Sequence record: PZ379542.1
Length of the DNA: 47,750 bases
Reading direction: 5' to 3' (one strand)
Source of the DNA: a phage
Notes under the pieces: model-generated
Told to the model about the DNA's origin: nothing
What the model saw: only the letters and a program-made list of their open reading frames with translations
Databases searched by the model: none
Translations under genes and position numbers: made by a program
Shown here: positions 1,323 through 33,596 of the stretch, one piece after another
Position numbering within the stretch: position 1 is the stretch's first letter
How the letters are laid out: every line of letters begins with the position of its first letter

Positions 1323-4300
1323 ATGGCACAAATGGTCAAAACAAATGCGGAGCTATGTGATATGGCGGAAGAAATTAAGATTTATGGAAGTAAGGGCGGA
1401 CAGCCAAAGCAGCACCAACCTGTAGAGCAGCCTGATAACCTGATATCCGTAAACAAGGTTAAGGTTTTGCTAGCTGTTTCTGATGGTGAGGTTGATAGCT
1501 CATTCTCCCTAAAGGACCTTTACCTTGCTGACGTTCCTGTACAGAACCAGAATGGCACATACAACTACGAGGGTGTAACGGCAGAGTTTCGCCCTGGCAC
1601 ACAGAGTCAGGATTACATTGCCGGGCTAGAGGGTGCTAACTCGGAAGTGCAAGTGAACAGGGAGATTAAAAACTCAACTCCTTACATCATTGCTGTTAAT
1701 AACACCCAGCTATCAGCGATTAGGGTTAAGCTGTTTTGGCCTCGTCTGATTAATCAGGAAAGTAACGGAGATCTTAACGGTACCACTTGCGAGTATGCGA
1801 TTGACCTGTCCGTTGATGGCGCTACATACACTGAGTACACGCGCGGAGTAGCTAATGGCAAGACAACTAGCGGGTACGACAGAAGTATCAGGGTTAACCT
1901 TCCTGCTGAGTTCTCGAGTGCGTTGGTGAGGGTTCGTAAGATCACGGCATATTCAGAAAGTTCGACGCTGGTTAACGACATGCAAATTACGACCTATCAG
2001 GAAGTAATTGATGCTAAATTCCGCTACCCACTTACAGCGCTGGTTTACGTTGAGTTCAGTTCTGACCTCTTCCCTAACGGAATCCCGACGATTTCAATCA
2101 AGAAGAAGTGGAAGTTGATTCGCGTTCCAACTAACTACAACCCAGAGACAAGGACTTACAGCGGAACCTGGAACGGCACCTTTAAGATGGCGTATTCCAA
2201 TAACCCGGCGTGGGTTCTTTACGACTTGGTGACGAATCAGCGTTACGGACTTGACCAGCGAGAGCTTGGCATTACTATTGATAAGTGGGGTCTGTATGAG
2301 GCGGCGCAATTCTGTGACCAGATGGTTCCAGATGGTAAGGGTGGAGTTGAGCCGCGCTACCTGTGTGATGTTGTCATTCAGCAGAAAGTTGAAGCATATC
2401 AGGTAATCCGTGATATTTGCTCTATCTTCCGTGGGCTGACATTCTATGACGGCGAGCAGATAGGTATTGTTGTCGATAAGCCGCGTCAACCATCGTACGT
2501 ATTCACCAATGACAACGTTGTTGATGGATTGTTCAACCGTACATTTGGTAGCGATAAGTCACTTTACACGGTTGCCAACGTTCAGTTTGATGACGTTGAA
2601 AACTCATACCAACAGGATGTTGAGCCAGTATTCGAGTTAGAGGCAACAAGGCGTTTTGGTTACAACCCGGTCGACCTTACAGCTATTGGATGTACTCGCA
2701 GGAGTGAGGCAAACCGCCGAGGGCGCTGGTTATTAAAGACGAACATTCGCAGCGAGACTATTAGTTTCACTACTGGTCTGGAAGGTATGATTCCAATGAT
2801 TGGTGAGGTTATTGCAGTTAATGACCAGGCATGGTCTAGCAACTACACCCTTAACCTTTCTGGTCGTATCGAGTCAGTAAGTGGGTTGCAAGTTTTTGTG
2901 CCATTTAAGATTGATGCTACTGCTGGCGACAGGATTCTAATAAACAAGCCTGATGGAATGCCAGAGTACAGGACCATTGCATCTGTATCTGAAGATGGTA
3001 TGACGCTGCAACTTAATACAGCGTTTAGCTTTACTCCTCAGCCTGACACAGTATTTGCGATTGATAAGGAAAATCTTGCTCTTCAGCAATATGTTGTGAC
3101 CGGGATTCAAAAAGCAGACAGCGATGGAGACGATGCGTTCGGTTACAGCATTACGGCAGTCGAGTACGACCCGAATAAATACGACGAAATTGATTACGGC
3201 GTAAACATTCAGGATAGGCCATCGTCAATCGTTGAACCTGACACGCTACTTGCCCCAGAAAATGTTCAGGTGAGCAGCTACAGCAAGGTTGTGCAGGGTT
3301 TATCAGTTGAGACAATGGTAATCACCTGGGACAAAGTTCAGTACGCCAAGACTTACACGGTACAGTGGCGTAAGGAGAACGGAAACTGGATTAACGTACC
3401 GCGCACAGCAAACACAGAAGTTGATATTGAAGGTATTTATGCTGGTATTTATCAGGTTCGCGTGAGGGCTGTTTCTGATACTGAAAACGTATCCGCATGG
3501 TCTGACATTGTTTCAGCAAGCCTAACTGGTAAAATTGGAACGCCGTCTGAGCCTACGGTAATCACAGCTTCAGATGATGAAATATTTGGCATTAGGGTTA
3601 AGTGGGGTTTCCCTGAAAACTCAGCCGATACGTCATACACTGAATTGCAGCAAGTAGCCGACAATGGTGATGGTACTTACTCACCAGAGAACGCCAGTTT
3701 GTTAACGCTAGTTCCTTACCCGGGTTACGAGTATTGGCACACTACATTACCGGCAGGAAAGGTTATCTGGTACAGGGCGCGACTGATTGACAAGATTGGT
3801 AACGTCTCACCATGGACTGATTTTGTAAGGGGTATGGCAAGCGATGATGTGTCGTCAATCATTGGTGATATTAAGGTTGATATAGAAAACTCAGATGGGT
3901 TCAAGTATCTCCAACAGAATGCCATTGAGTCAAACGGAGCTATTCAGGCGCAAGCGGAATCAATAATTGAGAACGCCCTGGCTAATGATGGTGACGTGCG
4001 TAGAATGACGAAGGAAAACGGCAAGAGGAAGGCCGAATTTGTTCAGGCTGTGAATCTTATCGCCGATGAAGAAAGGGCTCGCGTAGAGGCTCTGACGCAG
4101 CTTAAAGCGCAGATTGATGATGAGATTGTGGCTTCGTTGACAAGGATTGATACGGCGCTAGCGGAAGAAACGCAAGCAAGGACCACTGCGGACACTGCTT
4201 TATCTGCAAGGCTCGGTGAGAATGAAGCTGCTTTAAATGAGAAGCTGGATACTTACGTTACAGCTGATTCAATTGGTGCGCAGTACGGCATTAAGCTGGG

Positions 4301-4748
4301 TCTTACTTACAATGGGGTTGAGTACAATTCAGGGATGAGCATGGAACTAACCGGATCTGGTGGCAACGTTCGTAGTCAGTTCATTTTCGATGCTAACAGG
4401 TTCGCAATCAGTAACGGCATTAGCTCTGGATCCGGTCAGTGGTCATTGCCTTTCGTAGTTGAAGGTAATCAGGTATTCATTCAAAGCGCAGTGATTCAGG
4501 ATGGTTCAATCACTAACGCGAAGATTGGTAACCGGATTCAATCTAATAACTACGTGGCTGGTTCTCAGGGTTGGGCCATTGATAAGTCAGGCAGTGCGGA
4601 ACTTAACAATGCAACTGTAAGGGGTAGTCTGTACGCAAGTAACGGCAACTTTGCGTTTAACGGAACCAACAACACTGTTCAGATTAACAATAATGGAATT
4701 ACAGTTAATTTACCGAATGGTGGAAGGGTTGTAGTTGGAGTGTGGTAA
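1323..4748 (+). CDS. tail tip / host specificity protein J-like
   Basis: 1141 aa; YNPETRTYSGTWNGTFKMAYSNNPAWVLYDLVTNQRYG matches the conserved central block of lambda J as recalled from memory. Confidence 0.9.
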   Translation: MAQMVKTNAELCDMAEEIKIYGSKGGQPKQHQPVEQPDNLISVNKVKVLLAVSDGEVDSSFSLKDLYLADVPVQNQNGTYNYEGVTAEFRPGTQSQDYIAGLEGANSEVQVNREIKNSTPYIIAVNNTQLSAIRVKLFWPRLINQESNGDLNGTTCEYAIDLSVDGATYTEYTRGVANGKTTSGYDRSIRVNLPAEFSSALVRVRKITAYSESSTLVNDMQITTYQEVIDAKFRYPLTALVYVEFSSDLFPNGIPTISIKKKWKLIRVPTNYNPETRTYSGTWNGTFKMAYSNNPAWVLYDLVTNQRYGLDQRELGITIDKWGLYEAAQFCDQMVPDGKGGVEPRYLCDVVIQQKVEAYQVIRDICSIFRGLTFYDGEQIGIVVDKPRQPSYVFTNDNVVDGLFNRTFGSDKSLYTVANVQFDDVENSYQQDVEPVFELEATRRFGYNPVDLTAIGCTRRSEANRRGRWLLKTNIRSETISFTTGLEGMIPMIGEVIAVNDQAWSSNYTLNLSGRIESVSGLQVFVPFKIDATAGDRILINKPDGMPEYRTIASVSEDGMTLQLNTAFSFTPQPDTVFAIDKENLALQQYVVTGIQKADSDGDDAFGYSITAVEYDPNKYDEIDYGVNIQDRPSSIVEPDTLLAPENVQVSSYSKVVQGLSVETMVITWDKVQYAKTYTVQWRKENGNWINVPRTANTEVDIEGIYAGIYQVRVRAVSDTENVSAWSDIVSASLTGKIGTPSEPTVITASDDEIFGIRVKWGFPENSADTSYTELQQVADNGDGTYSPENASLLTLVPYPGYEYWHTTLPAGKVIWYRARLIDKIGNVSPWTDFVRGMASDDVSSIIGDIKVDIENSDGFKYLQQNAIESNGAIQAQAESIIENALANDGDVRRMTKENGKRKAEFVQAVNLIADEERARVEALTQLKAQIDDEIVASLTRIDTALAEETQARTTADTALSARLGENEAALNEKLDTYVTADSIGAQYGIKLGLTYNGVEYNSGMSMELTGSGGNVRSQFIFDANRFAISNGISSGSGQWSLPFVVEGNQVFIQSAVIQDGSITNAKIGNRIQSNNYVAGSQGWAIDKSGSAELNNATVRGSLYASNGNFAFNGTNNTVQINNNGITVNLPNGGRVVVGVW

Positions 4749-4754
4749 ATGATT

Positions 4755-4779
4755 AGGCCCCTTTCGGGGCCTTTTCTTT
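4755..4779 (+). terminator. rho-independent terminator
   Basis: ggcccc-tttc-ggggcc hairpin plus T-tract immediately after the J stop. Confidence 0.75.
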
Positions 4780-5741
4780 TAGTAGAAGTTTGGTATGAAT
4801 GGTAGAGCCATTGATATGTTTGTGTCGAATGGGAATCGGGCTCCCGTCTGCGTTGAGTAGTTACCTATTACAGTCCCTGGAACGGCCCTTACGGCGCCGC
4901 CAGACATGCATATGCCTTTGTATCTTAAGTTGTTATACCTTCCAGTAACCCTTGTTGTAGCTCCACACCTAAGTAGTGGGAAGAATCCACCATTTATTGA
5001 CTGGAAATCGTTAGTCATTTGTATAAAGCCACCAAGCACAAACGGTCGCCTAACGCTGGAAAAGACAATCTGGCCCAAGCTGTTAGACATTGTAAGCCCG
5101 GGTCCAGCTATCGGCGGTTCGTTTCTGAATATCACCAGTTGCACGTAAGTGCTTGCCGCCACGTCATCTGTACCAGTGTAGTTTATATTTCGGCACCAAA
5201 TTGTGCTCCCGTCGCTCTCCAGAGAAACTCCTGGGTTATCCCACTTACCAAACGGAACTCCGCTAACTGGAAGTGAAGCCGCGCCGTTAACTTGGATTCC
5301 ACCAACCCACGCCGCAGACATTAACCGCGAATTACTTGAAATTGCCAGGAAGTCAGTTGAGTTCTCAACAAGTATGCCCGGGCTTGAAGAGGATGAAGCA
5401 GCTAGTATCTCAAAGCAATTGCCAGCAAAGTTAATTATACGACCTCTTGCGCCATTGAAGTTACTAAGTTTTATCCTGCCAGTTCCGTCATTTACCTTCT
5501 GGAACCCGTTCATATAATAAACTTCAGGTACAACATCATAAGCGTCAACGTGCACAGCCTTTGTTGGAAGGCAGAATGCTGTTGAGCCTGGGGACATGGT
5601 TAAACCAAAATCCCATGATGATGCTGGCGTCGAAAGTCCATTGGTATTTATTGAGCCAGTCACAGCGGGCGCTCTTAATCCTGCCGTTATTTCCATAGGT
5701 GGCCTTCCATCATTAAGGTCAATCAATATTCCTTGAGGCAT
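4779..5741 (-). CDS. hypothetical protein; candidate receptor-binding / distal tail protein
   Basis: Long minus-strand ORF convergent with J; ATG at 5741 with AAGGAG RBS (ORF-track start at 5750 is GTG); co-oriented with and overlapping the upstream lipoprotein gene. Confidence 0.6.
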   Translation of the reverse strand: MPQGILIDLNDGRPPMEITAGLRAPAVTGSINTNGLSTPASSWDFGLTMSPGSTAFCLPTKAVHVDAYDVVPEVYYMNGFQKVNDGTGRIKLSNFNGARGRIINFAGNCFEILAASSSSSPGILVENSTDFLAISSNSRLMSAAWVGGIQVNGAASLPVSGVPFGKWDNPGVSLESDGSTIWCRNINYTGTDDVAASTYVQLVIFRNEPPIAGPGLTMSNSLGQIVFSSVRRPFVLGGFIQMTNDFQSINGGFFPLLRCGATTRVTGRYNNLRYKGICMSGGAVRAVPGTVIGNYSTQTGARFPFDTNISMALPFIPNFY

Positions 5742-5983
5742 TATTTCCACTCCTTAGACCCATGGTCAGCAACAGAGCCACCGTAACCGCCGCCAGCCTT
5801 GCTCTCAATACCAGCGTATCGCACATCAACTTCACCAGACGGTACAACCACACCATTTTCCCATTTAGCCACGCACACGCCGTTTGCTTGCGTTGCACAC
5901 CATCCGTCAGGACGCGGAGCAGAAGAACAACCCACCATCATGATTGCTGCTGCGATGATTGAAAGTTTGATTAAGTTAGTCAT
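5741..5983 (-). CDS. small lipoprotein (Llp/Cor-like superinfection-exclusion candidate)
   Basis: Signal peptide with lipobox [13 protein letters not shown]; 80 aa; AAGGA RBS; promoter cassette upstream. Confidence 0.75.
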
Positions 5984-6023
5984 TTTCGTATTCCTTAGAA
6001 GGTGTGTTTCGTTTCAATGGAGT

Positions 6024-6069
6024 AATGATATCTCATCCTTGAGATTTGTCTTTAGCAATTGGTGCTATT
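6024..6069 (-). promoter_or_regulatory. palindrome-containing promoter cassette (AATAGCACnnnTTGCTAAA + extended -10)
   Basis: Minus-strand motif aaatagcaccaattgctaaa; -10 tatcat at conserved spacing; ccattgaaacga leader; upstream of lipoprotein gene. Confidence 0.6.
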
Positions 6070-6741
6070 TGCTATGAAGACTGCTTTTGCAAAACCGCGA
6101 GGAGTTAGACTGTGAATTACCTTTGTCTTCTTACTCTTCCCACCAAGCTTCTTGTATTGGTCAGAGAATCCATCGTTAACGTCCACAGGAATCGCCTCTG
6201 GCCATTTAAACCCATTGCCATACCAAATGCATGTCTTCTTGGGATATGCGTCTTTTGTCTTTATTAGGTCGCTAAAAAACGGGTGTAAATCATCTTCCGG
6301 CAAATAGCCTCCGTATTCATATGGGTGGAAAGTCTTATTAGGCTTTCTCCAGAGTGATGACAGTACGCTGATTGGATTCTCAATCATGTATGGGACTTCG
6401 TACTTATTAGCCAAGTTAAAAGCAACTTTACATGTTTCCGCAGCTTCAATCTGGAAGTTATGGTTAACCAGTCGCTTTCGCTCAAAGTGCCTTGACCCGC
6501 TCACGGCTAAATCCGTACACGGCGGGAACGCTAAAATGATATCAGGCTTCACATCAAAGTCGAAGTTGCCATCTATCCAGGCATTAACGTAGGTGATGTT
6601 CTCATGTTCAAATTTTGCATTTAAATCCCCGCAACTACCGTGGTCAGACTCATCAAAGTTGAAACAGTAGCACTCGTGACCAGCTTCGGCCCAATCTTTC
6701 ACAGCCAGCCCTGAACCATCAAATAAAGACCAGATAACCAT
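6052..6741 (-). CDS. DNA (cytosine-5) methyltransferase-like protein
   Basis: Motif I-like SLFDGSG, motif IV-like FPPCTDLAVSG, motif VI-like MIENP; ATG at 6741 with GAGAGAGG RBS; C-terminus NSTNC encoded by the repeat motif. Confidence 0.65.
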   Translation of the reverse strand: MVIWSLFDGSGLAVKDWAEAGHECYCFNFDESDHGSCGDLNAKFEHENITYVNAWIDGNFDFDVKPDIILAFPPCTDLAVSGSRHFERKRLVNHNFQIEAAETCKVAFNLANKYEVPYMIENPISVLSSLWRKPNKTFHPYEYGGYLPEDDLHPFFSDLIKTKDAYPKKTCIWYGNGFKWPEAIPVDVNDGFSDQYKKLGGKSKKTKVIHSLTPRGFAKAVFIANSTNC

Positions 6742-6772
6742 TTTGAAATCCTCTCTCGTTTTTTTGTGTGAC

Positions 6773-6818
6773 CAACTATACATGGTTTTGCGGATTAGTT
6801 TTAGCTATTCGTGCTGTT
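6773..6818 (-). promoter_or_regulatory. palindrome-containing promoter cassette (variant)
   Basis: Minus-strand cagcacgaatagctaaa; tgtatagt extended -10; upstream of methyltransferase-like gene. Confidence 0.5.
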
Positions 6819-7480: not shown

Positions 7481-8452
7481 ATGACATTTAAAGTTTATAC
7501 GAACGACGAGCTAACCAATGAAGCCTATCACGAAGAGAAAGACCATATCTCTGGCTCTTCGCTGGCTGAGATTCTTGCTACTTCTCCAGCAAAATGGAAA
7601 TTTAAGCAGCGCAGCAACTCTAGCGCAGCACTTAAATTTGGCACACTAAGTCACTGCATGATGCTAGAGCGCGAGGTATTTGACTTAACATACATGCGAG
7701 CTACTGACTTTGACGAAGTGGAAGGATTGATTACTAGCCAAACGGCTTTATCCGCAGCGCTTAAAAAAGTTGGAGTTTCAGGCACGTCAGGTAAGGGATA
7801 TAGCGAGCTCGTGGAGATGATGTATAAATCTGGTGAGGATTGGCCTGTTAAATGGTTAATTGAGCAGCAGGAGAGCGCTGAGGCGTTAATTAGTGGCAAA
7901 GAGCTCGTTACTGCGAAAGATTACGATAAGGTAATCTCAATGCGCGAGGTTCTGACTAATATCCCAGCTTACGATGCGATTATTAACTCACCAACAGCAC
8001 AGAAAGAGCTATCAATCTTTGGTGAGATTCTTGGGTGTGGTGTTAAGGTTAGGCTTGATCACGTGGATGTTGTTGATGGCGTGGTTTTCATTACTGACTA
8101 CAAGACGACGGCGGACGCAAGCCCGAGAGGATTTGGCAAGTCAGCTTATGACCATGGATACCTGTGCAAAATGAGCCTTCAGCGTGACTTGTTCGTGAAG
8201 GCATTTAACGAGAAGCGTAAGGTTGTGGTTCGACTTCTGGCGCAGGAAAAAACGGAGCCTTACTTACCAATGAGCTACACGCTTACAGATGAACAGCTTC
8301 GCATTGGTCGTTTACAATATTGTGAGGCACTAGCAACATACAAACAGTGCAAGGAGCTTGATGTATGGCCTGGGTATAGCAATGGGATTACAGAGCAAGA
8401 TTTGATGATTCCTGAGTGGGTAAGTAAGCAGTATCAAGAACTTCTAAAATAG
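7481..8452 (+). CDS. PD-(D/E)xK family exonuclease (recombination exonuclease)
   Basis: VRLDHVDVVDGVVFITDYKT D...D/E-x-K signature; adjacent to ERF and SSB. Confidence 0.7.
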   Translation: MTFKVYTNDELTNEAYHEEKDHISGSSLAEILATSPAKWKFKQRSNSSAALKFGTLSHCMMLEREVFDLTYMRATDFDEVEGLITSQTALSAALKKVGVSGTSGKGYSELVEMMYKSGEDWPVKWLIEQQESAEALISGKELVTAKDYDKVISMREVLTNIPAYDAIINSPTAQKELSIFGEILGCGVKVRLDHVDVVDGVVFITDYKTTADASPRGFGKSAYDHGYLCKMSLQRDLFVKAFNEKRKVVVRLLAQEKTEPYLPMSYTLTDEQLRIGRLQYCEALATYKQCKELDVWPGYSNGITEQDLMIPEWVSKQYQELLK

Positions 8453-8522: not shown

Positions 8523-9173
8523 ATGAAAACTTCAGATCAAAACAAGCAAGTATTGAAGGCTTTATTTGAGGCCAAATCAAAGTTTGCAAAGGCTGAAAAG
8601 TCAAAGCAGAACTCGCACCTAAAGAACAGGTACGCCACCCTGGAAGACGTACTGGCGGCTGTAGAGCCTGGCCTTGCAGATAGCGGACTGGTCATGTTTC
8701 AAGACATGATTGATGATGAAGCCACAACTAGAATTAAGGTTGAAACAACTGTCTATCATGCAGAATCTGGAGAGTGGGTCAGCTTCCTGACAATCGTCCC
8801 AATCAGCAAGCAAGATGCTCAAGGTTACGGCTCATCACTTACATATGCTCGCCGTTATGCAATTACAGCGTCATTAGGCTTGAGCCAGGCAGATGATGAT
8901 GGTCAGCTTGCAGTTAAGGGTATCAACTCATTTAAGAAAGATTTAGCTAAGTGCAACACTCTTGATGACCTGCGTGATGTATACAAAGAAGCTAAGCAGT
9001 CTCTTGATTCAGCTGGTTGGCTGGTGATTGAACCTCACATCATTGAGCGTAAGGCAGAAATTCAGGCTAATGCAACTAACGGCTTCAATCCTGCAAAACC
9101 TAAACAGGTTGCACAAAAGTCTGTTCAAGAAGAAAAAGTTGAAGTACAATCTCAAGAAATCGACACATTCTAA
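8523..9173 (+). CDS. ERF-family single-strand annealing protein
   Basis: NRYATLEDVL and YARRYAITASLGL blocks resemble P22 Erf as recalled from memory. Confidence 0.75.
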   Translation: MKTSDQNKQVLKALFEAKSKFAKAEKSKQNSHLKNRYATLEDVLAAVEPGLADSGLVMFQDMIDDEATTRIKVETTVYHAESGEWVSFLTIVPISKQDAQGYGSSLTYARRYAITASLGLSQADDDGQLAVKGINSFKKDLAKCNTLDDLRDVYKEAKQSLDSAGWLVIEPHIIERKAEIQANATNGFNPAKPKQVAQKSVQEEKVEVQSQEIDTF

Positions 9174-9213
9174 TTTAACGGGGCTGCGGCCTCAACATTA
9201 AGAGAGAAAGAAA

Positions 9214-9648
9214 ATGAGTCATGTAATCACTGGTGTTATCCGTCGCGCTCCGTTCACTAAAGAAGGTCAGAATGCAAATGGCAGTTGGAAGATGTACGCG
9301 GTTGATTTAAGTGAGCGTTACAAGGATAAAGATGGTCAATCTCAGTATAGCAACTATCGTGCCGTCTTCTTCGCAAAGGAATCAATGCTTACATGGTATA
9401 ACGAAGCGTTTCAGGAAGGGAAGATTGTTAGCGTAAGTTGTGAGACGTTAGCATTAGATGTTCGAGATAAAGATGGCAAGACTTACATAACAATTAACAT
9501 GAACAATCCTCGTCTTGAGTTTAGTCAGCGTGGTGAGGGTGCACAGCAACATAAAAATACAGAGCAACAACAGCGCCATCAACCGCAACATCAACAGCAA
9601 CAACAACAACAACAGCAAAACACATTCGACGGAGATATTCCATTCTGA
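9214..9648 (+). CDS. single-stranded DNA-binding protein with poly-Q linker and acidic DIPF tail
   Basis: C-terminus ...QQQQQQQQQNTFDGDIPF is an SSB-type tail; strong RBS. Confidence 0.7.
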   Translation: MSHVITGVIRRAPFTKEGQNANGSWKMYAVDLSERYKDKDGQSQYSNYRAVFFAKESMLTWYNEAFQEGKIVSVSCETLALDVRDKDGKTYITINMNNPRLEFSQRGEGAQQHKNTEQQQRHQPQHQQQQQQQQQNTFDGDIPF

Positions 9649-9658
9649 TAAAAGATAA

Positions 9659-9681
9659 AGCCCCTTTCGGGGCTTTTTTTA
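9659..9681. terminator. bidirectional rho-independent terminator
   Basis: agcccc-tttc-ggggct hairpin with T-tract on both strands, between convergent SSB and tailspike genes. Confidence 0.75.
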
Positions 9682-12207
9682 TGCAAGAGAAACTCTTGAG
9701 TTTGCAAATATCAAGGCGTCCCTTTGATTATCAAATTCTACAACAAAATAATCAGCAAGGCTTAATACCATACCAGTTAATCCATTGAGGTTAATGTTAA
9801 GGTTTGCAACGCCAGAAACCGAAGCCTTACCAACGCCAAATGTATGAACCCACTTACCAGCTTCTGTGAATACAGTTCCTAATGATGCGCTACCAGAAAT
9901 GTTTATAATACCATCAGCACCGCCTTGAATCCTGTTTGCAGAAATACCCCAAGCATACCATTTGCCGGAAGTTATATTAAAGCTACCATTTATCAATTCG
10001 TACTGAGCCGCACCAGCCAATTCGTAGTATCCAGATGATTGCGAGTGTATACCCCTTGTATCAGAACCTTCACTTGACGACCCTGTTCCACCAAAGTTGT
10101 TCCCACCAGTACCAAAAGGCCTCCTTACTAAAACAGTTCCGGAATCAGGGTTAAAAACTCGACCTTTAGTAACATATCCTCTAACAGATAAGTCAGATGT
10201 ACCCGTTATCTTGGCTGTCTGTGATACCAGTGACTCAACTATAACGTTTGATGTTGAAGAGCCATTCAGGTATGCATCCTTAGCAAAAATAATACTGTTC
10301 GAATCAAGAGAGAAACTTTGGTGCCCATCAGCGTTATCAAACCTGCACCCATAAGTTACAAGGTTTGAATTTGATAACTCAATGTTATTAATATAAGAAT
10401 GCTCAGCAAAGAAAACGGACGTATCGATGAGCTTCAAAACCCTTGGGAGTTCAGCTCCCTCACCTACGTTAATTGCCCCACCAGTTGCTATCGCTTCAAA
10501 CCATACGTTAGACAATCCGCAAGGTGATGTTGGGCAATCTCCAGGTTTATTCTTTAACCTTATACCGCCGCCAGCAGAGGCCTCCATTATTGAATCCCTA
10601 ATCCACCACCCACCAATTCCTCCAGCGCCAGGGTTCGTTGCGCTACTTGTGCTTGTCGCATCTAGCATTACTGAATATTGAGAGATTGTATCTGAGTGGT
10701 ATCCGTATAAAGTGTCCGCTCCTATATGCATTTCGTCATGAGCTTTTGCTCGATACCCGTAATTCGCATTTCTAATACTTACGTTTCTGTAGGTATTTCC
10801 AATGTTGCCAGCATTTTTCCTTATACCAACATCCAGGTCATTGAAGTAAAGCCTATCCAATACAACCCTTCCAGCATAAGGGCCATCCGGGAATTGAAAG
10901 CCGTTATTACCTTGTATTGCAGTACCTGTAAACTGCAAATCCGATAAATGCTTTTGCCTCCAGTGCGGAACCGATAGCGTTGAGGTGAGTCCGGTTTCAA
11001 AAGGTTTAACACTTATTACGGTATTATATCCAGAGCCTGATATGTTCCTGCCAGCAAAGGAGTAGTTATTACTCTCATAAGTTCCCGGGCTTATAACTAC
11101 CGACCCGCCATCGCCAGCGGCTTCTATTGCTGAAGATATTGAGCCGCTATAGCTTGATGTGCTTTTTGAATCTGTATTTAAAATTGATGATAATTCGCTC
11201 TTTGAGTAAACATCAAGGTTGGTTCTTGCTTCTGCTTTATCTGCAACATCAGATAAATTCAATGATTTTTGAAAAGTCTCATTTTTTGAGTAAACATCAA
11301 GCAAGCCTCTTACTCGCTGGGCGCTAGCGTCGCCAACCTTACTTCCTGATGCGACATAAAGAGCCTCTCTTGAATAGTAAGTTTTGTTTGGTGCCGTGCC
11401 AGTCTGAGTTAAATCAATCAACCTGTACGTATTATCGGATCCGGTTGATGCTGACACTTGTATGTTCTTAACACCAGTAATCCCCCTTGATGACTTAACC
11501 TCAATCGCACAAAGCGTGCTATCGGAGTAGGTTATATTTATCACCTCTGGAGCGTTGATCATTGCTGACTTTTGGCATAGGTATCTAGCTCCTGATTTGA
11601 AATCAAACGTATTCCAGTCAAGTTCTGTCAACTGAGGTGTAAACGAGCCACCGATACCCATATTGGCAAGAGTTACCATTGTGCCAGCATCACCAGCACT
11701 ATTAATTGCCTCAATAGTAGCATCTCTCGCTGATGTGGTTGTATCCCTTGCGCTAACGGCAGTAGCGGCGCTCTCTGCGGCAGCAATCTGGCTAGCTAAA
11801 GACTCGGCAGCCCCTGTTACTGATTGGTTTGCTAATTGCTCGAAGCGAGGCCAATCGAAATTATCTTGCCCGATAAATTGCAGCAAACTTTCAATAGAAG
11901 TCTCCTTTGACTGATAGTAACGCAGAGTCTCAGCAACATCCTGAGCTAAACCCTGAACGGTAATGCCATCGTGAGCAAGAATCGCGTAACCAGTTCCGGC
12001 AGGAACAGTTTCAGAATTAGGGTTGTAAACATTAATCTGAGTGTCGCTGATGATTTCAGAGATGGTATAAATTTTAAGTGGACTGGTTTTAAAAATAATG
12101 GTTGCACCTACACGAATAAGTGTAAGTGGTGCTTTCCATGTTGTCCGGACGCCAGTAACCTCGCCATTTGCGGCTAGCGACGCTGTTCCTAAGTCATAAA
12201 TTGCCAT
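9679..12207 (-). CDS. tailspike / tail fibre protein with predicted beta-helix (pectate-lyase-like) domain
   Basis: 842 aa from ATG 12207 (GGAGA RBS); Gly/Ser/Asn/Thr-rich repetitive central region. Confidence 0.75.
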   Translation of the reverse strand: MAIYDLGTASLAANGEVTGVRTTWKAPLTLIRVGATIIFKTSPLKIYTISEIISDTQINVYNPNSETVPAGTGYAILAHDGITVQGLAQDVAETLRYYQSKETSIESLLQFIGQDNFDWPRFEQLANQSVTGAAESLASQIAAAESAATAVSARDTTTSARDATIEAINSAGDAGTMVTLANMGIGGSFTPQLTELDWNTFDFKSGARYLCQKSAMINAPEVINITYSDSTLCAIEVKSSRGITGVKNIQVSASTGSDNTYRLIDLTQTGTAPNKTYYSREALYVASGSKVGDASAQRVRGLLDVYSKNETFQKSLNLSDVADKAEARTNLDVYSKSELSSILNTDSKSTSSYSGSISSAIEAAGDGGSVVISPGTYESNNYSFAGRNISGSGYNTVISVKPFETGLTSTLSVPHWRQKHLSDLQFTGTAIQGNNGFQFPDGPYAGRVVLDRLYFNDLDVGIRKNAGNIGNTYRNVSIRNANYGYRAKAHDEMHIGADTLYGYHSDTISQYSVMLDATSTSSATNPGAGGIGGWWIRDSIMEASAGGGIRLKNKPGDCPTSPCGLSNVWFEAIATGGAINVGEGAELPRVLKLIDTSVFFAEHSYINNIELSNSNLVTYGCRFDNADGHQSFSLDSNSIIFAKDAYLNGSSTSNVIVESLVSQTAKITGTSDLSVRGYVTKGRVFNPDSGTVLVRRPFGTGGNNFGGTGSSSEGSDTRGIHSQSSGYYELAGAAQYELINGSFNITSGKWYAWGISANRIQGGADGIINISGSASLGTVFTEAGKWVHTFGVGKASVSGVANLNINLNGLTGMVLSLADYFVVEFDNQRDALIFANSRVSLA

Positions 12208-12229: not shown

Positions 12230-12276
12230 AGTAGCACTAATTGCTAAAGTGGATTGTATCATCTTTCAGGTATAAA
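12230..12276 (+). promoter_or_regulatory. palindrome cassette copy (orphan or antisense orientation)
   Basis: gtagcactaattgctaaa + tataaa; points rightward into the minus-strand primase gene; overlaps the tailspike 5' UTR. Confidence 0.4.
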
Positions 12277-17001: not shown

Positions 17002-17421
17002 ATGAAAATCACAGACAAAGGTGATTACCTCGAGTTCTATGGCGGACCGGTGAAGTCATGCCCAAAGGAAGACGATGAACAAATCTTCTGCTCTGATTGG
17101 GTGAAATACAACTATCCGCAGATTGTTTACTGGCACACGATTAACGAAAATAAAAAGAGCATTGGTCAAGCAAGAAAAGACCAAGCCAAGGGGCTTCTCA
17201 AAGGTGTGTCAGACTGCTTATTTCTGATACCTGAGTCATTGCGTGGCGGTTATCCATTTGGCGCCATAGAGTTAAAGAGGGCTGGTAAAACGCAAGCAAG
17301 CCCAGTTAGCAATGAGCAAAAGTCATTCCTAAAAAGCGTAAGTGAATCAGGCGGTTTCGCAGCGGTGGCTTATGGAAGAGAGGGTTTTCTTGCGGCATTC
17401 GCAGAGATGATAAGAAAATAG
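17002..17421 (+). CDS. VRR-NUC domain nuclease
   Basis: GVSDCLFLIPE...GAIELKRAGKTQASPVSNEQKSF PD-(D/E)xK-like VRR-NUC pattern; start overlaps helicase stop. Confidence 0.65.
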   Translation: MKITDKGDYLEFYGGPVKSCPKEDDEQIFCSDWVKYNYPQIVYWHTINENKKSIGQARKDQAKGLLKGVSDCLFLIPESLRGGYPFGAIELKRAGKTQASPVSNEQKSFLKSVSESGGFAAVAYGREGFLAAFAEMIRK

Positions 17422-20306: not shown

Positions 20307-20861
20307 ATGAAAAAGTTAATCATCCTTAATGCACCCCCTGGTGCTGGAAAAGATACAGTTGCAGATATCATTGTTAATCTTGGAATTTGCAAGGATAAGG
20401 TTTCATTCAAGTCACCAATGTTTAATGTTGCAAAAGGAATACTATCAAGCGATGAGTTTGATGAATTTATTAAGAATTACGATGACCGAGAGTACAAAGA
20501 ATCACCACATGAATTTCTTGGTGGAATGACGGTTCGTGAATTTATGATTTGGATTAGTGAGTCAGTTATGAAGCCAGTCTTTGGTGATGATGTTTTCGGT
20601 AAAAGGCTAGCGCAATCACTTGGTGATGGTTGCTATATCTGTGCTGATGGTGGCTTCGCTAGCGAGATTAATACTCTCATTGATTCAGGGGTTGAAGTTA
20701 CTTTGATTAGACTTTTTAGGCCTGGCTATACTTTTGATGGAGATAGCCGCTCCTACATTCGCGGTGTCTGCGCAAGAGAAATTGACGTTCATGTTGTAGA
20801 TGGTGATATTGATGGAACCTCTGCTTTGGTAATGCACGTAATAAATAGCACGAATTGCTAA
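20307..20861 (+). CDS. P-loop deoxynucleoside monophosphate kinase-like protein
   Basis: LNAPPGAGKDT Walker A; RPG and DGD blocks resemble T4 gp1 as recalled; ATG 20307 one nt after previous stop; C-terminus NSTNC from the repeat motif. Confidence 0.65.
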   Translation: MKKLIILNAPPGAGKDTVADIIVNLGICKDKVSFKSPMFNVAKGILSSDEFDEFIKNYDDREYKESPHEFLGGMTVREFMIWISESVMKPVFGDDVFGKRLAQSLGDGCYICADGGFASEINTLIDSGVEVTLIRLFRPGYTFDGDSRSYIRGVCAREIDVHVVDGDIDGTSALVMHVINSTNC

Positions 20862-30771: not shown

Positions 30772-30847
30772 GTTCTGCTGGCGTAACAGGATAACGCAAA
30801 GACCTCCTAAGTCTTAGTTACTGGTTCGAGTCCAGTGCGGAACACCA
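30772..30847 (+). tRNA. tRNA-Arg (anticodon CCU)
   Basis: Hand-folded cloverleaf: acceptor gttctgc/gcggaac (one G-U), D-stem gcgt/acgc with GG in loop, anticodon stem aagac/gtctt with loop ctCCTaa, T-arm actgg-ttcgagt-ccagt, discriminator A, encoded CCA. Confidence 0.75.
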
Positions 30848-32027: not shown

Positions 32028-33596
32028 ATGGCTAATTTAGTTTGGGAGGAAATGACGACAGCAGAAAAGATGGCGGTTAAGGCGATATCCACTCATAGCT
32101 TCGAGGGATTCTTGCGGGTGTGGTTCCAGCTAACTCAGGGAGAGCGGTACATCCCAAACTGGCATCATAAATACCTTTGCAGAATCATTGACGAGATTAT
32201 CGCAGGTGAGCGCAAGGACACTATCATTAACATAGCACCAGGTAGCGGAAAAACAGAGATAGCCTCAATTCACTTCCCAGCATACTCAATGGTGAAGCTA
32301 AAGAAGGTAAGGAACCTCAACATCTCATTTGCTGACTCACTGGTTAAGCGCAACTCCAAGCGAGTGCGCGACCTGATTAAGTCTGTTGAGTTCCAGGAGT
32401 TATTCCCTTGCAAGTTCGGCACGTGCAAGGACGATGAGTTACAGGTCCTTGATGAGTCTGGAAAGGTCCGGTTTGAATCAATCTCAAAAGCTGCTGGCGG
32501 TCAGATTACCGGCGCAAGGGGTGGGTATATAACAGATTCATATAGTGGCGCAGTACTGTTAGATGATTTTGACAAACCTGCAGATATGCTTTCGGCTGTA
32601 TTCCGTGCCAACAACCATGTGATGCTAAAGAACACCATACGTTCTCGTAGGGCTAGCTCGGTAAAAGGCAAGGCGACGCCGATTATCTCTATCCAACAGC
32701 GCCTTCATGTGAATGATAGTACGTGGTTCATGATGAATGGCGGTATGGGTATTAGCTTCGACTTGATTAAGATACCGGCGCTCGTAACTGAGAATTACGT
32801 CGACACGCTCCCTGACTGGATTAAGCAGCAATTCATTGATGACGTTCTATCAAGCGAATATATTGAGCGTGATGGTGTTAGGTACTATAGCTATTTCCCT
32901 GGCAAGGAATCTGTTCACGACCTAGTTGCAATGTGGGATTCTGATAGCTATACATTCCTTAGCCAGTATCAGCAAGAACCAGTAGCACTTGGCGGCAACC
33001 TGATTAACGTAGACTGGCTTCAACGCATTAGCGACACTCTGCGACCGCCAGCTAAGTACGATTACAGGTTTATGGTCCTTGATACTGCGATGACAACCAA
33101 AAGTTACAGCGACTTTAGCGTCATGCAGCTATGGGGTTATAAGGATGGGAAGATTTATCTGCTTGACCAGCGGCGCGGTAAATTTGAAGCTCCTGAGCTC
33201 GAGGCTGAGTTATTGGATTTCGAGAAGATGGCTAGGGCATCCAATCAGATAGATGGTATCCTTCGTAAAATCATCATCGAGAAGAAAGCCTCTGGTATTG
33301 GCCTGATTCAATCAGCCGGAAGGGTTATGCGAACGCCTATCGAGCCGTACGTTCCTGATAACGATAAGCTGACTCGCGTAATGAGTGCATTGCCGCAGAT
33401 TAAAGCTGGTAACGTAATCCTTCCGGAGTCTGCTACTTGGCTTAATGGCTTGCTAACGGAGATTGCGGCATTCACGGCAGATGATTCACATGTTCACGAT
33501 GACCAGATAGACTGTTTGACAATGGCTGTCAACCTGGTACTGAACATTGCAGAAGACCCTAAATCGAGGATGATGCGCCTCGCTGGCATCAAATAG
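32028..33596 (+). CDS. terminase large subunit
   Basis: Walker A IAPGSGKT; C-terminal nuclease-like region; ATG 32028 (alternative in-frame ATG 31977); stop TAG inside cassette motif. Confidence 0.8.
   Translation: MANLVWEEMTTAEKMAVKAISTHSFEGFLRVWFQLTQGERYIPNWHHKYLCRIIDEIIAGERKDTIINIAPGSGKTEIASIHFPAYSMVKLKKVRNLNISFADSLVKRNSKRVRDLIKSVEFQELFPCKFGTCKDDELQVLDESGKVRFESISKAAGGQITGARGGYITDSYSGAVLLDDFDKPADMLSAVFRANNHVMLKNTIRSRRASSVKGKATPIISIQQRLHVNDSTWFMMNGGMGISFDLIKIPALVTENYVDTLPDWIKQQFIDDVLSSEYIERDGVRYYSYFPGKESVHDLVAMWDSDSYTFLSQYQQEPVALGGNLINVDWLQRISDTLRPPAKYDYRFMVLDTAMTTKSYSDFSVMQLWGYKDGKIYLLDQRRGKFEAPELEAELLDFEKMARASNQIDGILRKIIIEKKASGIGLIQSAGRVMRTPIEPYVPDNDKLTRVMSALPQIKAGNVILPESATWLNGLLTEIAAFTADDSHVHDDQIDCLTMAVNLVLNIAEDPKSRMMRLAGIK

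Follow-up and report, generated by a model that had tools for sequence, protein, structure and literature searches.

A predicted LptD-specific receptor-binding protein and superinfection-exclusion lipoprotein beside gene J of an Rtp-like coliphage

In a phage DNA of 47,750 nucleotides (PZ379542.1; this whole stretch is referred to as the window), two leftward genes are found next to the gene for the tail-tip protein J. What do they contribute to the recognition of the host, and which receptor do they serve? An initial annotation had proposed that they encode a superinfection-exclusion lipoprotein and a distal receptor-binding protein (RBP). Judged from sequence and homology, the gene pair and its locus constitute, with a probability of about 90%, the host-recognition module of an Rtp-like coliphage (T1 family, Braunvirinae) with LptD, the translocon for LPS in the outer membrane, as its terminal receptor. 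The 320-aa protein would very probably be an LptD-specific RBP and the 80-aa lipoprotein its superinfection-exclusion partner, with receptor use, location in the virion and protection extrapolated from homologues. The layout of the genes, the families to which their products belong, the degrees of identity and the fold were determined directly for the window; LptD dependence, binding modes and the exclusion mechanism are known from publications on close homologues.

The features of the locus are listed in Table 1. The lipoprotein and RBP genes are convergent with J, as had been noticed before, and the stop codons of J (4748) and of the RBP gene (4779) are separated by a hairpin that looks like an intrinsic terminator with its T-run on the plus strand. 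The one-nucleotide overlap described in the initial annotation was found as well: the stop codon TAA of the lipoprotein gene (5743-5741) and the ATG of the RBP gene (5741-5739) have one base in common in the sequence TAATG on the minus strand. Since the Shine-Dalgarno sequence of the RBP gene is located inside the lipoprotein gene, shortly before this ATG, translational coupling is implied. The longest possible reading frame of the RBP gene is 323 aa and starts from a GTG, but the start at the ATG, giving 320 aa, is the correct one, since the homologues begin with MPQGI, MAQGI or MGAGI. In small siphophages, the RBP is encoded in a variable locus immediately downstream of gpJ (PMC8594841). The locus in the window likewise adjoins the 3' side of gpJ, and the RBP gene is immediately preceded by the gene for its cognate lipoprotein. 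Annotations of Rtp, ES, Oekolampad, OzMSK, IMM-001, ACG-M12 and Bas01 show this arrangement as well, and all of them except that of Oekolampad also give the one-base overlap. No NCBIfam model matched the lipoprotein, the RBP or the methylase encoded upstream, and an Rfam search of the whole window returned a single tRNA (30772-30844) and nothing within the locus.

Table 1. Features of the J-proximal locus, with positions in the window
Feature	Coordinates	Strand	Basis
J-like central tail fibre / tail-tip protein, 1141 aa	1323..4748	+	phrog_31, Pfam
G+C-rich hairpin AGGCCCC-TTTC-GGGGCCT between convergent stop codons	4755..4772		terminator scan and direct reading
Predicted RBP, 320 aa, DUF6453, LptD-specific class (ACG-M12/OzMSK allele)	4779..5741	-	PF20051, phrog_1265
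Predicted superinfection-exclusion lipoprotein, 80 aa, Rtp45 family	5741..5983	-	PF24052, phrog_4281
Shine-Dalgarno AAGGAG of the RBP gene, in the 3'-terminal part of the lipoprotein gene, spaced 8 nt from the ATG	5750..5755	-	direct reading
Shine-Dalgarno AAGGA of the lipoprotein gene, spaced 8 nt from the ATG	5992..5996	-	direct reading
Promoter-like cassette of the lipoprotein-RBP operon: AAATAGCACCAATTGCTAAA, 21-22 nt, TATCAT	6025..6070	-	promoter scan match 6052..6025

Profile and structure searches, which the initial annotation had suggested as a check, gave clear answers for both proteins. The 320-aa protein is a full-length member of the DUF6453 family: it matches PF20051 with 451 bits (cut-off 25; E = 1.8e-135) over profile positions 1-291 of 291, and a phmmer search of the PDB aligned its residues 2-320 with 9RPT_C (E = 2.6e-61), the RBP of Oekolampad in a cryo-EM structure of its complex with LptDE. 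The sequence is 95.3% identical to the homologue in ES, 91.9% to that in OzMSK and, at a coverage of approximately 100%, about 42% to Rtp44 and to the RBPs of Bas01 (42.3%) and Oekolampad (Bas18; 42.2%). LptD-specific RBPs have been defined by an identity of >30% and a coverage of >99% to the RBPs of phages that were experimentally found to depend on LptD (bioRxiv 10.64898/2026.04.02.716166), and the alignments with the proteins of Oekolampad/Bas18, Bas01 and OzMSK, all essentially end to end, fall within this definition. Of these phages, Bas01 and Bas18, as well as Bas02, depend on LptD (PMC8594841), and OzMSK was unable to infect either of two lptD loop-deletion mutants (Black et al., Mol Biotechnol 2025; PMC13035648). 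In GenBank, the RBP of OzMSK is annotated as 'putative LptD-receptor binding protein based on experimental evidence' (PQ659294), and the allele in the window may be expected to behave like this 92%-identical homologue.

An AF2 model of the protein (pLDDT 86, pTM 0.85) shows an all-beta, soluble fold without predicted helices. When the PDB was searched with this model by Foldseek, 9rpt_C was retrieved with E = 7.4e-21 and a TM-score of 0.90 when normalized to the target length and 0.72 when normalized to the query length; among the 50 PDB matches listed, it was the only one at E <= 0.001, the next having E = 0.12. The modelled protein has the fold of the LptDE-bound RBP (9RPT chain C), at an identity of only ~42% to this sole RBP with a solved complex.

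These data also bear on the possibility that the 320-aa protein is a host-membrane 'moron' and not a virion component, in which case J itself would recognize the host. Such a role is suggested by phrog_1265, which carries the name 'membrane protein' and the category 'moron, auxiliary metabolic gene and host takeover', by the repetition of this name in many RefSeq records, and by the leftward orientation of the gene, away from the tail operon. However, the all-beta model is soluble and free of predicted helices, its match to the fold of 9rpt_C is unique and strong, and the homologue of Oekolampad could be purified in soluble form and attaches to LptDE from the extracellular side (9RPT). Furthermore, phages of the TolC and LamB types, in which J is the recognizer of the receptor, do not possess the locus and have extended J C-termini (PMC8594841; bioRxiv 10.64898/2026.04.02.716166), whereas the J protein in the window ends in a tip associated with LptD-specific RBPs. 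A moron function is, thus, extremely unlikely, and a correction of the label of phrog_1265 is supported.

The J homologue itself is readily identified. It matches phrog_31, 'central tail fiber J', with E = 0, contains the Pfam domains FNIII-A_GpJ, Phage-tail_3 and Phage_Tail_Tip, and is 98% identical to J of phage ES and 83.5% to Rtp43. Its last ~90 aa show 50-56% identity to J of Oekolampad, as compared with 37% overall, whilst over the last ~40 aa the identity to J of T1 is only 24%, as compared with 59.5% overall. As the C-terminus matches the LptD type (Oekolampad) and not the FhuA type (T1), the tip of J co-varies with the RBP family, which lends indirect support to the predicted place of the RBP at the tail tip of the virion. 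Probably, the RBP is docked via its very conserved first ~25 residues onto this RBP-class-specific C-terminus of J. A second receptor recognized by J, as is NupG in Bas01, was also considered. In Bas01, J contains a segment linked to NupG use, which the J protein in the window does not have: the corresponding segment (residues ~901-950) is 80% identical to that of Rtp and 44% to that of Bas01. Because the segment is of the Rtp type, there is no indication that J binds a second receptor.

The product of the smaller gene has all the hallmarks of a lipoprotein. As had been recognized before, it contains the lipobox M-V-G-C, which follows a hydrophobic signal peptide (aa 1-18) and contains Cys19 (codon at 5927-5929). 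Lipoproteins with a residue other than Asp at position +2 are sorted to the outer membrane. With Ser20 at this position, the protein is predicted to have this destination. It matches PF24052 with 130.7 bits (cut-off 27; E = 1.9e-38) over profile positions 1-80 of 80; together with the PF20051 match of the RBP, this E-value excludes that the two genes are chance ORFs. The phmmer search of the PDB retrieved 9RPS_D, i.e., Rtp45 (E = 4.5e-36). The lipoprotein is 85.3% identical to Rtp45, 85% to its homologue in OzMSK, 80% to that in Bas01 and 37% to the superinfection-exclusion protein of Oekolampad. It shares the MVGC box with Rtp45, and its Cys29 and Cys37 align with the cysteines of the disulfide Cys30-Cys38 in that protein. 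The strand of Rtp45 that pairs with LptD (residues 30-35) reads CATQAS, and the lipoprotein has CATQAN. Relative to Rtp45, five residues are inserted near the C-terminus; the insertion is shared by the homologues of ES and of OzMSK, a phage dependent on LptD. Rtp45 is said to have been described in the genome paper of Rtp as a lipoprotein conferring resistance. In the cryo-EM structure of its complex with LptDE and LptM (PDB 9RPS), Rtp45 is located on the periplasmic side, and the mechanism of exclusion was deduced from this structure (Dunbar et al., PNAS 2025; PMC12685063). Altogether, the close relationships to Rtp45 and to the RBPs of OzMSK and Oekolampad support the proposal that the pair consists of an exclusion lipoprotein and a distal RBP.

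By homology with these systems, the module may work as follows. The RBP would sit at the end of the J-like central fiber and enter the extracellular lumen of LptDE in an open state, where it would touch the loops EL3-5 and EL11; its insertion would commit the phage to injecting its DNA. After export and attachment of lipid to Cys19, the 80-aa protein would reach the inner leaflet of the outer membrane. Like Rtp45, it would bind LptD from the periplasm, at a site flanked by LptE and LptM, and push a hairpin up the lumen of the barrel, thereby displacing loop EL4 by ~20 A. Due to this displacement, LptD would no longer accept the RBP, and, with LptD blocked, infected cells and the debris remaining after lysis would cease to adsorb the phage itself and other LptD-targeting phages. 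Both proteins would be produced together, from one promoter-like cassette and by translational coupling at the TAATG.

Rtp45 lies inside the LPS translocon, with LptE and LptM on either side, and changes the conformation of LptD, which could also affect LPS transport (PMC12685063). Hence, the lipoprotein might mainly alter LPS export or the envelope, e.g., by slowing LptDE, or it might only shield the progeny from adsorption to debris. Protection of the progeny from debris, however, belongs to the accepted function of exclusion and is not an alternative to it (PMC12685063). As to an envelope function, the lipoprotein gene is strictly linked to the gene for an LptD-specific RBP in the seven phages examined. 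Such strict linkage combined with translational coupling is the pattern expected of a receptor-masking factor, as in the case of Llp of T5 and FhuA. A main role outside exclusion is, therefore, very improbable.

The initial annotation had further placed the pair under a 'cassette promoter'. A repeated element was indeed found upstream of the lipoprotein gene; promoter activity of this element and co-transcription of the two genes would follow from its sequence features. The 20-mer with which it begins contains the palindrome TAGCA-N5-TGCTA, located near -42, and it also includes the TAA that terminates the upstream methyltransferase gene. The spacer (22 nt) holds an inverted repeat, ATCTCA-AGGA-TGAGAT, and is followed by TATCAT, which resembles a -10 element. 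Relatives of the 20-mer with up to three mismatches occur seven times in the window, where none are expected by chance, and a shorter pattern has ~13 copies, almost all located immediately 5' of a gene and oriented with it. When 12 copies were aligned, the box was invariant and TAnnnT was found at a fixed distance from it. The cassette upstream of the lipoprotein gene is kept in a six-phage alignment, which includes OzMSK, IMM-001, ACG-M12, ES and Rtp, and in which the Shine-Dalgarno sequence AAGGA is invariant. For the 101 nt that precede the lipoprotein gene, the folding z-score was -1.14, indistinguishable from that of shuffled sequences; thus, a structured leader is not supported.

A tentative, and rather doubtful, extension is that the pair does not belong to the ordinary late tail genes but is one of ~13 genomic cassettes under a Braunvirinae-specific type of promoter. 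In such a promoter, the 15-bp palindrome TAGCA-N5-TGCTA, with its centre ~42 bp upstream of the presumed start, would take the place of the -35 box, at a fixed distance of 22 nt from a TAnnnT -10 element; class II dimeric activators show the same geometry of palindrome and -10 element. If so, a dedicated phage or host factor would switch on the lipoprotein and the RBP along with recombination, methylase and other genes. No description of the element or its box was found in the literature searched, and the original genome paper of Rtp may already contain one.

Among the closest known systems, OzMSK (MSK; gp038 and gp039 in PQ659294) carries the same allele of the RBP. As in the window, its J gene is followed by the convergent RBP and lipoprotein genes, with the same one-base overlap and promoter-like cassette, and the DNA identity across the locus is ~81%. 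A methylase is encoded upstream of the lipoprotein in OzMSK too, but it belongs to another family (27% identity; PF01555-type vs. Dcm-like in the window). The remainder of the genome is nearer to phage ES / AN_ECEAS (92%) than to OzMSK. In Rtp (Rtp44/Rtp45) and AugustePiccard (Bas01; bas01_0028/0029), the locus, orientation, overlap and cassette are as in the window, but the RBP represents a different allele of the DUF6453 family. Relative to Rtp, the RBP allele is swapped while the flanks are conserved, with a DNA identity of 50-65% in the RBP gene and 70-86% in the flanks. Oekolampad, which belongs to another genus (Dhillonvirus), encodes the same two families at the same position after gpJ (RBP_Oeko, bas18_0025; SE_Oeko, bas18_0026), and structures of its RBP with LptDE were solved by cryo-EM (PDB 9RPT, 9RPW and 9RQI). 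Its genes, however, are 2 nt apart instead of overlapping, and no TAGCA-N5-TGCTA cassette was found in the 11-kb Oekolampad locus. Both protein families are also present in Kuravirus podophages.

Could the pair serve a receptor other than LptD, i.e., FhuA, as do pb5 and Llp of T5 and Cor of T1, or one gained through divergence of the allele? RBP loci are exchanged horizontally and specify FhuA, BtuB, YncD or LptD (PMC8594841; bioRxiv 10.64898/2026.04.02.716166), and the RBP is separated from those of Rtp, Bas01 and Oekolampad by the considerable distance given above. However, the four receptor classes correspond to unrelated protein families, and a full-length DUF6453 protein falls in the LptD class. 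Besides, the closely related OzMSK homologue is LptD-dependent, the cognate lipoprotein closely resembles the LptDE-binding Rtp45, and the Rtp-like J segment discussed above does not point to a second receptor. Together with the lack of similarity to pb5 and Llp and the restriction of the Cor similarity to the signal-peptide region, this leaves very little probability for a receptor other than LptD.

The similarity to the T5 arrangement, put forward in the initial annotation, holds for function and for the adjacency of the genes. The logic of pb5 (oad) and Llp is the same: the monomeric RBP at the tail tip of a siphophage binds an outer-membrane barrel, and a periplasmic lipoprotein encoded by an adjacent gene masks the receptor. 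The similarity does not extend to the receptor, which is FhuA in T5, nor to the orientation of the genes, which are divergent in T5 and form a co-directional, overlapping pair in the window. Also the modes of exclusion differ, as Llp acts by long-range allostery via the plug of a TonB-dependent transporter and Rtp45 by physical displacement of loops (PMC12685063). At the sequence level, the lipoprotein gave no BLASTP alignment with Llp of T5 at E <= 100 and no Pfam or PHROG match to an Llp family; the best BLASTP alignment of the RBP with pb5 of T5 had E = 0.28 over 21 residues, and no pb5 was present among the 50 PDB matches listed by Foldseek. The suggested likeness to Cor is similarly partial. 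Cor is a small lipoprotein encoded near the J/tail-fiber region of T1-family phages, and it mediates exclusion by inactivating the outer-membrane receptor of the phage. Function and gene arrangement are, thus, comparable, but the match to the Cor family (phrog_1119; T1, phi80 and N15) has E = 0.008 and is confined to residues 6-33, i.e., signal peptide and lipobox; in BLASTP, 14 of 38 positions were identical to T1 Cor over residues 7-44, with a gap of 10 residues. Moreover, Cor is associated with FhuA-dependent phages, and in T1, cor is parted from J by two rightward genes (ST32 and ST31) and is not paired with an RBP gene as in the window.

The module is already known from genetic and structural work (Maffei 2021; Black 2025; Dunbar 2025). 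Publications of 2021-2025 cover its class, its genetics and the structures of the two components in complex with LptDE, and GenBank already contains alleles that are 92-95% identical; no new biology is added. What is gained is the assignment of LptD as the probable terminal receptor of the phage of this window and an explanation for two genes that are still labelled 'membrane protein', 'hypothetical protein' or even 'Cor' in databases. With respect to host range, resistance to this phage is predicted for lptD loop mutants; expression of the 80-aa lipoprotein should enable cells to exclude all siphophages that depend on LptD.

The window is a complete, circularly permuted genome of a Braunvirinae coliphage (Rtp-like, Drexlerviridae), which begins in the tail K, I and J genes and ends with those for the tape measure, M and L proteins. 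Over 89% of its first 25 kb, it is ~92% identical to the Escherichia phages ES and AN_ECEAS. Its only Rfam match is a single tRNA gene; phage OzMSK was reported with one tRNA-Arg. In phage ES, the RecE and Erf homologues are mislabelled as a capsid protease and head morphogenesis proteins.

The ORF list and the raw sequence reproduced base for base what the initial annotation had described next to J, i.e., a gene for an 80-aa lipoprotein with a lipobox, overlapping by one nucleotide a 320-aa ORF, the pair being convergent with J. A terminator-like hairpin lies between J and the pair. The lipoprotein has a classical signal peptide with lipobox MVGC (Cys19 codon at 5927-5929), and its +2 residue, Ser, is of the outer-membrane sorting type. 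Its stop codon TAA and the ATG of the second gene have one base in common (TAATG), and both start codons are preceded at 8 nt by a strong ribosome-binding site, AAGGA and AAGGAG, respectively. Mechanically, the second ORF would have 323 aa with a GTG start; since all homologues begin at the MPQGI/MAQGI/MGAGI position, the ATG start is the correct one.

The 320-aa protein is a full-length member of Pfam family DUF6453 (PF20051, E=1.8e-135) and of phrog_1265. Among all PDB sequences, it had a single matching protein, present as chain C in 9RPT/9RPW/9RQI (E=2.6e-61, residues 2-320). This is the receptor-binding protein (RBP) of Oekolampad (Bas18) in cryo-EM structures of its complex with the lipopolysaccharide translocon LptDE (Dunbar et al., PNAS 2025, PMC12685063). 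An AlphaFold2 model built from an alignment of 41 sequences (pLDDT 86, pTM 0.85) is all-beta, without helices, and its only significant Foldseek match in the PDB was 9rpt_C (E=7.4e-21, TM 0.90 relative to the modelled length of the target), the second-best match having E=0.12. Across 41 diverse family members, conservation is highest in the first ~25 residues, where M1, G4, I7, N10, D11, G12, M16, I18, R23 and P25 are invariant. Both phrog_1265 and RefSeq name the RBP a "membrane protein" (phrog category moron), an annotation problem that is propagating.

The 80-aa protein is a full-length PF24052 "Phage_lipoprotein" (E=1.9e-38; phrog_4281) and matched 9RPS chain D in the PDB (E=4.5e-36), i.e., Rtp45 of phage Rtp in a structure bound to LptDE-LptM (PMC12685063). 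The two lipoproteins are 85.3% identical globally, with the lipobox conserved. The disulfide pair Cys30-Cys38 of Rtp45 is kept as Cys29/Cys37, and the strand that pairs as a beta-sheet with LptD is conserved as well (CATQAN, vs. CATQAS in Rtp45). The profile and structure search of both proteins that had been proposed earlier yielded PF20051, PF24052, 9RPT chain C and 9RPS chain D. One database record labels a homologue of the lipoprotein "Cor superinfection exclusion protein", and the phage ES lipoprotein is annotated at 97 aa, with a 17-aa N-terminal extension starting inside the promoter cassette; both are annotation problems.

In small siphophages, terminal-receptor specificity is determined by a variable locus directly 3' of gpJ, with a cognate exclusion protein, and one type of this locus goes with LptD (Maffei et al., PLoS Biol 2021, PMC8594841). 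Four unrelated RBP families, for FhuA, BtuB, LptD and YncD, have been distinguished, each with >30% identity at >99% coverage (bioRxiv 10.64898/2026.04.02.716166). As the RBP is 42% identical end to end to those of Bas18 and of Bas01/Rtp, it belongs to the LptD family by this criterion. More direct evidence comes from OzMSK, whose RBP shares 91.9% identity with that of the window phage. OzMSK can infect E. coli K-12 delta-RM but is unable to infect either of two mutants with a loop deletion in lptD (Black et al., Mol Biotechnol 2025, PMC13035648), and its GenBank record annotates the gene as LptD-binding RBP. The lipoprotein is an independent pointer to the same receptor, since exclusion has to target the receptor that the phage itself uses, and this protein is 85% identical to an LptDE binder. 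Together, these homologies support the assignment of the pair as an LptD-specific RBP/exclusion module, and the proposed functions, superinfection-exclusion lipoprotein plus RBP, are likewise supported by the homologues from LptDE complexes and by OzMSK.

RBP_Oeko reaches far into the extracellular lumen of LptDE in its open state, with an interface of ~1,700 A2 and contacts mostly to LptD loops EL3-5 and EL11 (PMC12685063). Rtp45 binds between LptE and LptM on the periplasmic side, close to barrel strands 5-8, and extends a hairpin up the lumen; this displaces EL4 by up to 20 A, which is incompatible with RBP binding (PMC12685063). By homology, the RBP of the window phage would enter the lumen of open LptDE from the outside, and its lipoprotein would block this binding from the periplasmic side by displacing EL4. 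The tip of J co-varies with the RBP class, since over its last ~90 residues (~1050-1141) identity to Oekolampad J rises to 50-56%, from 37% overall, whilst over its last ~40 residues identity to the FhuA-type J of T1 falls to 24%, from 59.5% overall. Such covariation is as expected if the N-terminus of the RBP docks on the J tip, a view shared by the 2026 preprint (bioRxiv 10.64898/2026.04.02.716166). J residues ~901-950, a segment that differs in Bas01, where it is linked to NupG use (bioRxiv 10.64898/2026.04.02.716166), are Rtp-like in the window phage.

The initial annotation had likened the pair to T5 llp with its RBP gene and to Cor-type lipoproteins of T1-like phages. The likeness to T5 is apt as a functional analogy, but homology was rejected: BLASTP found nothing between the lipoprotein and Llp and gave E=0.28 over 21 residues for the RBP and pb5, and pb5 is absent from the Foldseek PDB matches listed. 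The modes of action differ too, as Rtp45 acts by physical displacement and Llp on FhuA by long-range allostery (PMC12685063). Furthermore, llp and oad are divergent in T5, whereas the pair is co-directional in the window phage. Kinship with Cor was dismissed as well, since in BLASTP T1 Cor aligns with the signal peptide and lipobox alone (14/38 residues); phrog_1119 (Cor) matched residues 6-33 (E=0.008). In T1, two rightward genes separate cor and J, unlike the pair with its one-base overlap, which recurs, equally co-directional, in Rtp, ES, OzMSK, IMM-001, ACG-M12 and Bas01. Hence, the function read initially stands, but the relatives and the receptor (FhuA) implied by the T5 and T1 models are to be replaced by the DUF6453 and PF24052 families and, as predicted from these homologies, LptD.

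Features of the locus and its relatives (window coordinates unless a phage is named)
Feature	Position	Strand	Remarks
J homologue	1323-4748	+	1141 aa; phrog_31 E=0; Pfam FNIII-A_GpJ, Phage_Tail_Tip
Terminator-like hairpin	4755-4772		terminator scan
RBP gene	4779-5741	-	320 aa
Lipoprotein gene	5741-5983	-	80 aa
C5-cytosine-methyltransferase-like gene	6052-6783	-	phrog_757; directly 5' of lipoprotein gene
Cassette, lipoprotein gene	6070-6025	-	AAATAGCACCAATTGCTAAA, 22 nt, TATCAT
Cassette copies (16-17-mer starts)	6067, 6816, 13289, 24312, 25092	-	
Cassette copies (16-17-mer starts)	8450, 12232, 17419, 20846, 27642, 28495, 29769, 33594	+	
Box-encoded stop codons	6052-6054, 8450-8452, 17419-17421, 20859-20861, 33594-33596		
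tRNA gene	30772-30844	+	
Rtp45-type lipoprotein gene, phiEco32	3974-4255		among early genes; PF24052 E=2.4e-36
Region with DUF6453 gene, ES17	2977-4978		tail module; PF20051 E=1.8e-24; hhalign probability 99.4; 9rpt_C E=1e-9

As had been proposed, a promoter of its own is very probable for the pair, because the cassette upstream of it recurs with a fixed layout and is conserved at this position in six phages, whichever gene stands further upstream. The layout comprises AAATAGCACGAATTGCTAAA, 22 nt, TAnnnT, TACTCCATCGAAACGA, a ribosome-binding site and ATG, with a short inverted repeat of variable sequence often inside or flanking the 22-nt spacer; in an alignment of 12 copies, the box is invariant and TAnnnT lies at a fixed distance. 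The 20-mer of the lipoprotein cassette has seven copies with up to three mismatches in the window (0 expected), a shorter pattern ~13, nearly all of which stand directly 5' of a gene that they are oriented towards. The copy at 12232 is followed not by a gene on its strand but by a terminator-like hairpin, and the same holds in Bas01. There are 13 copies in Bas01 and none in the 11-kb Oekolampad locus; the box had no literal match in the searchable literature. A consensus promoter scan flagged AAGACA-16-TATCAT at the lipoprotein cassette. The box contains the palindrome TAGCA-N5-TGCTA, of which there are 10 exact copies vs. 0.05 expected from shuffles; it is centred ~42 bp upstream of the inferred start, as is typical of activator-dependent promoters. 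In at least five cases, the gene upstream terminates inside the box, its stop codon being either the TAG in AAATAGCA or the TAA in TGCTAAA; this fits with genes having been slotted in as cassettes between boxes.

One such gene encodes the methyltransferase-like protein, 89.5% identical to the "Dcm-like" protein of Bas01, whose C-terminus and stop (NSTNC*) are encoded by the box itself. The first ATG shares bases with the -10-like TATAGT of the gene's own cassette; the true gene is thus probably 6052-6741 (MVIWSLF..., 229 aa). This slot is variable: it holds an unrelated methylase in OzMSK, a hypothetical gene in ACG-M12 and nothing in ES and Rtp.

The module as such has already been described genetically, structurally and in annotations, and near-identical alleles are publicly available. 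When 4779-5983 was compared with Rtp 8753-9918, DNA identity was 70-75% over the 3' portion of J, 50-65% over the RBP gene and 81-86% over the lipoprotein gene, with protein identities of 83.5, 41.6 (to Rtp44) and 85.3%, respectively. Given the low value between flanks that stayed Rtp-like, the RBP gene has been exchanged for a distant allele from within its family, consistent with horizontal exchange at RBP loci (PMC8594841; bioRxiv 10.64898/2026.04.02.716166). Both alleles occur in LptD-dependent phages, the Rtp44 type in Bas01 (AugustePiccard) and that of the window in OzMSK. In phage TR2 (84.6% identical genome-wide), the megablast match at the locus covers only ~380 bases, i.e., the lipoprotein gene and its upstream region.

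With tblastn, 343 phage records were found to contain the RBP family and 380 the lipoprotein family; most belong to siphophages of Escherichia, Shigella and Klebsiella. A collection of 5.8 billion proteins contained 77 RBP clusters, all DUF6453, including prophage or plasmid copies from Citrobacter, Enterobacter, E. coli and Pseudomonas. This coliphage-type module is also present in PP134917.1 (PsgS01F), labelled a Pseudomonas syringae phage, and in MG065669-75 (A118-A123), labelled Campylobacter jejuni phages. PsgS01F has 44,679 bp, equal to E. coli phage UALMA_PCEc3, and its RBP is 92.5% identical; these host labels look doubtful, and the phages are possibly contaminating coliphages. Both families also occur, unlinked, in Kuravirus podophages (Gordonclarkvirinae), where the DUF6453 gene directly follows that of a short "tail fiber" protein with a J-type Phage_Tail_Tip domain. 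The BASEL paper gives the terminal receptor of Kuravirus as unknown or LPS core; the presence of both families suggests that these phages may also use LptD.
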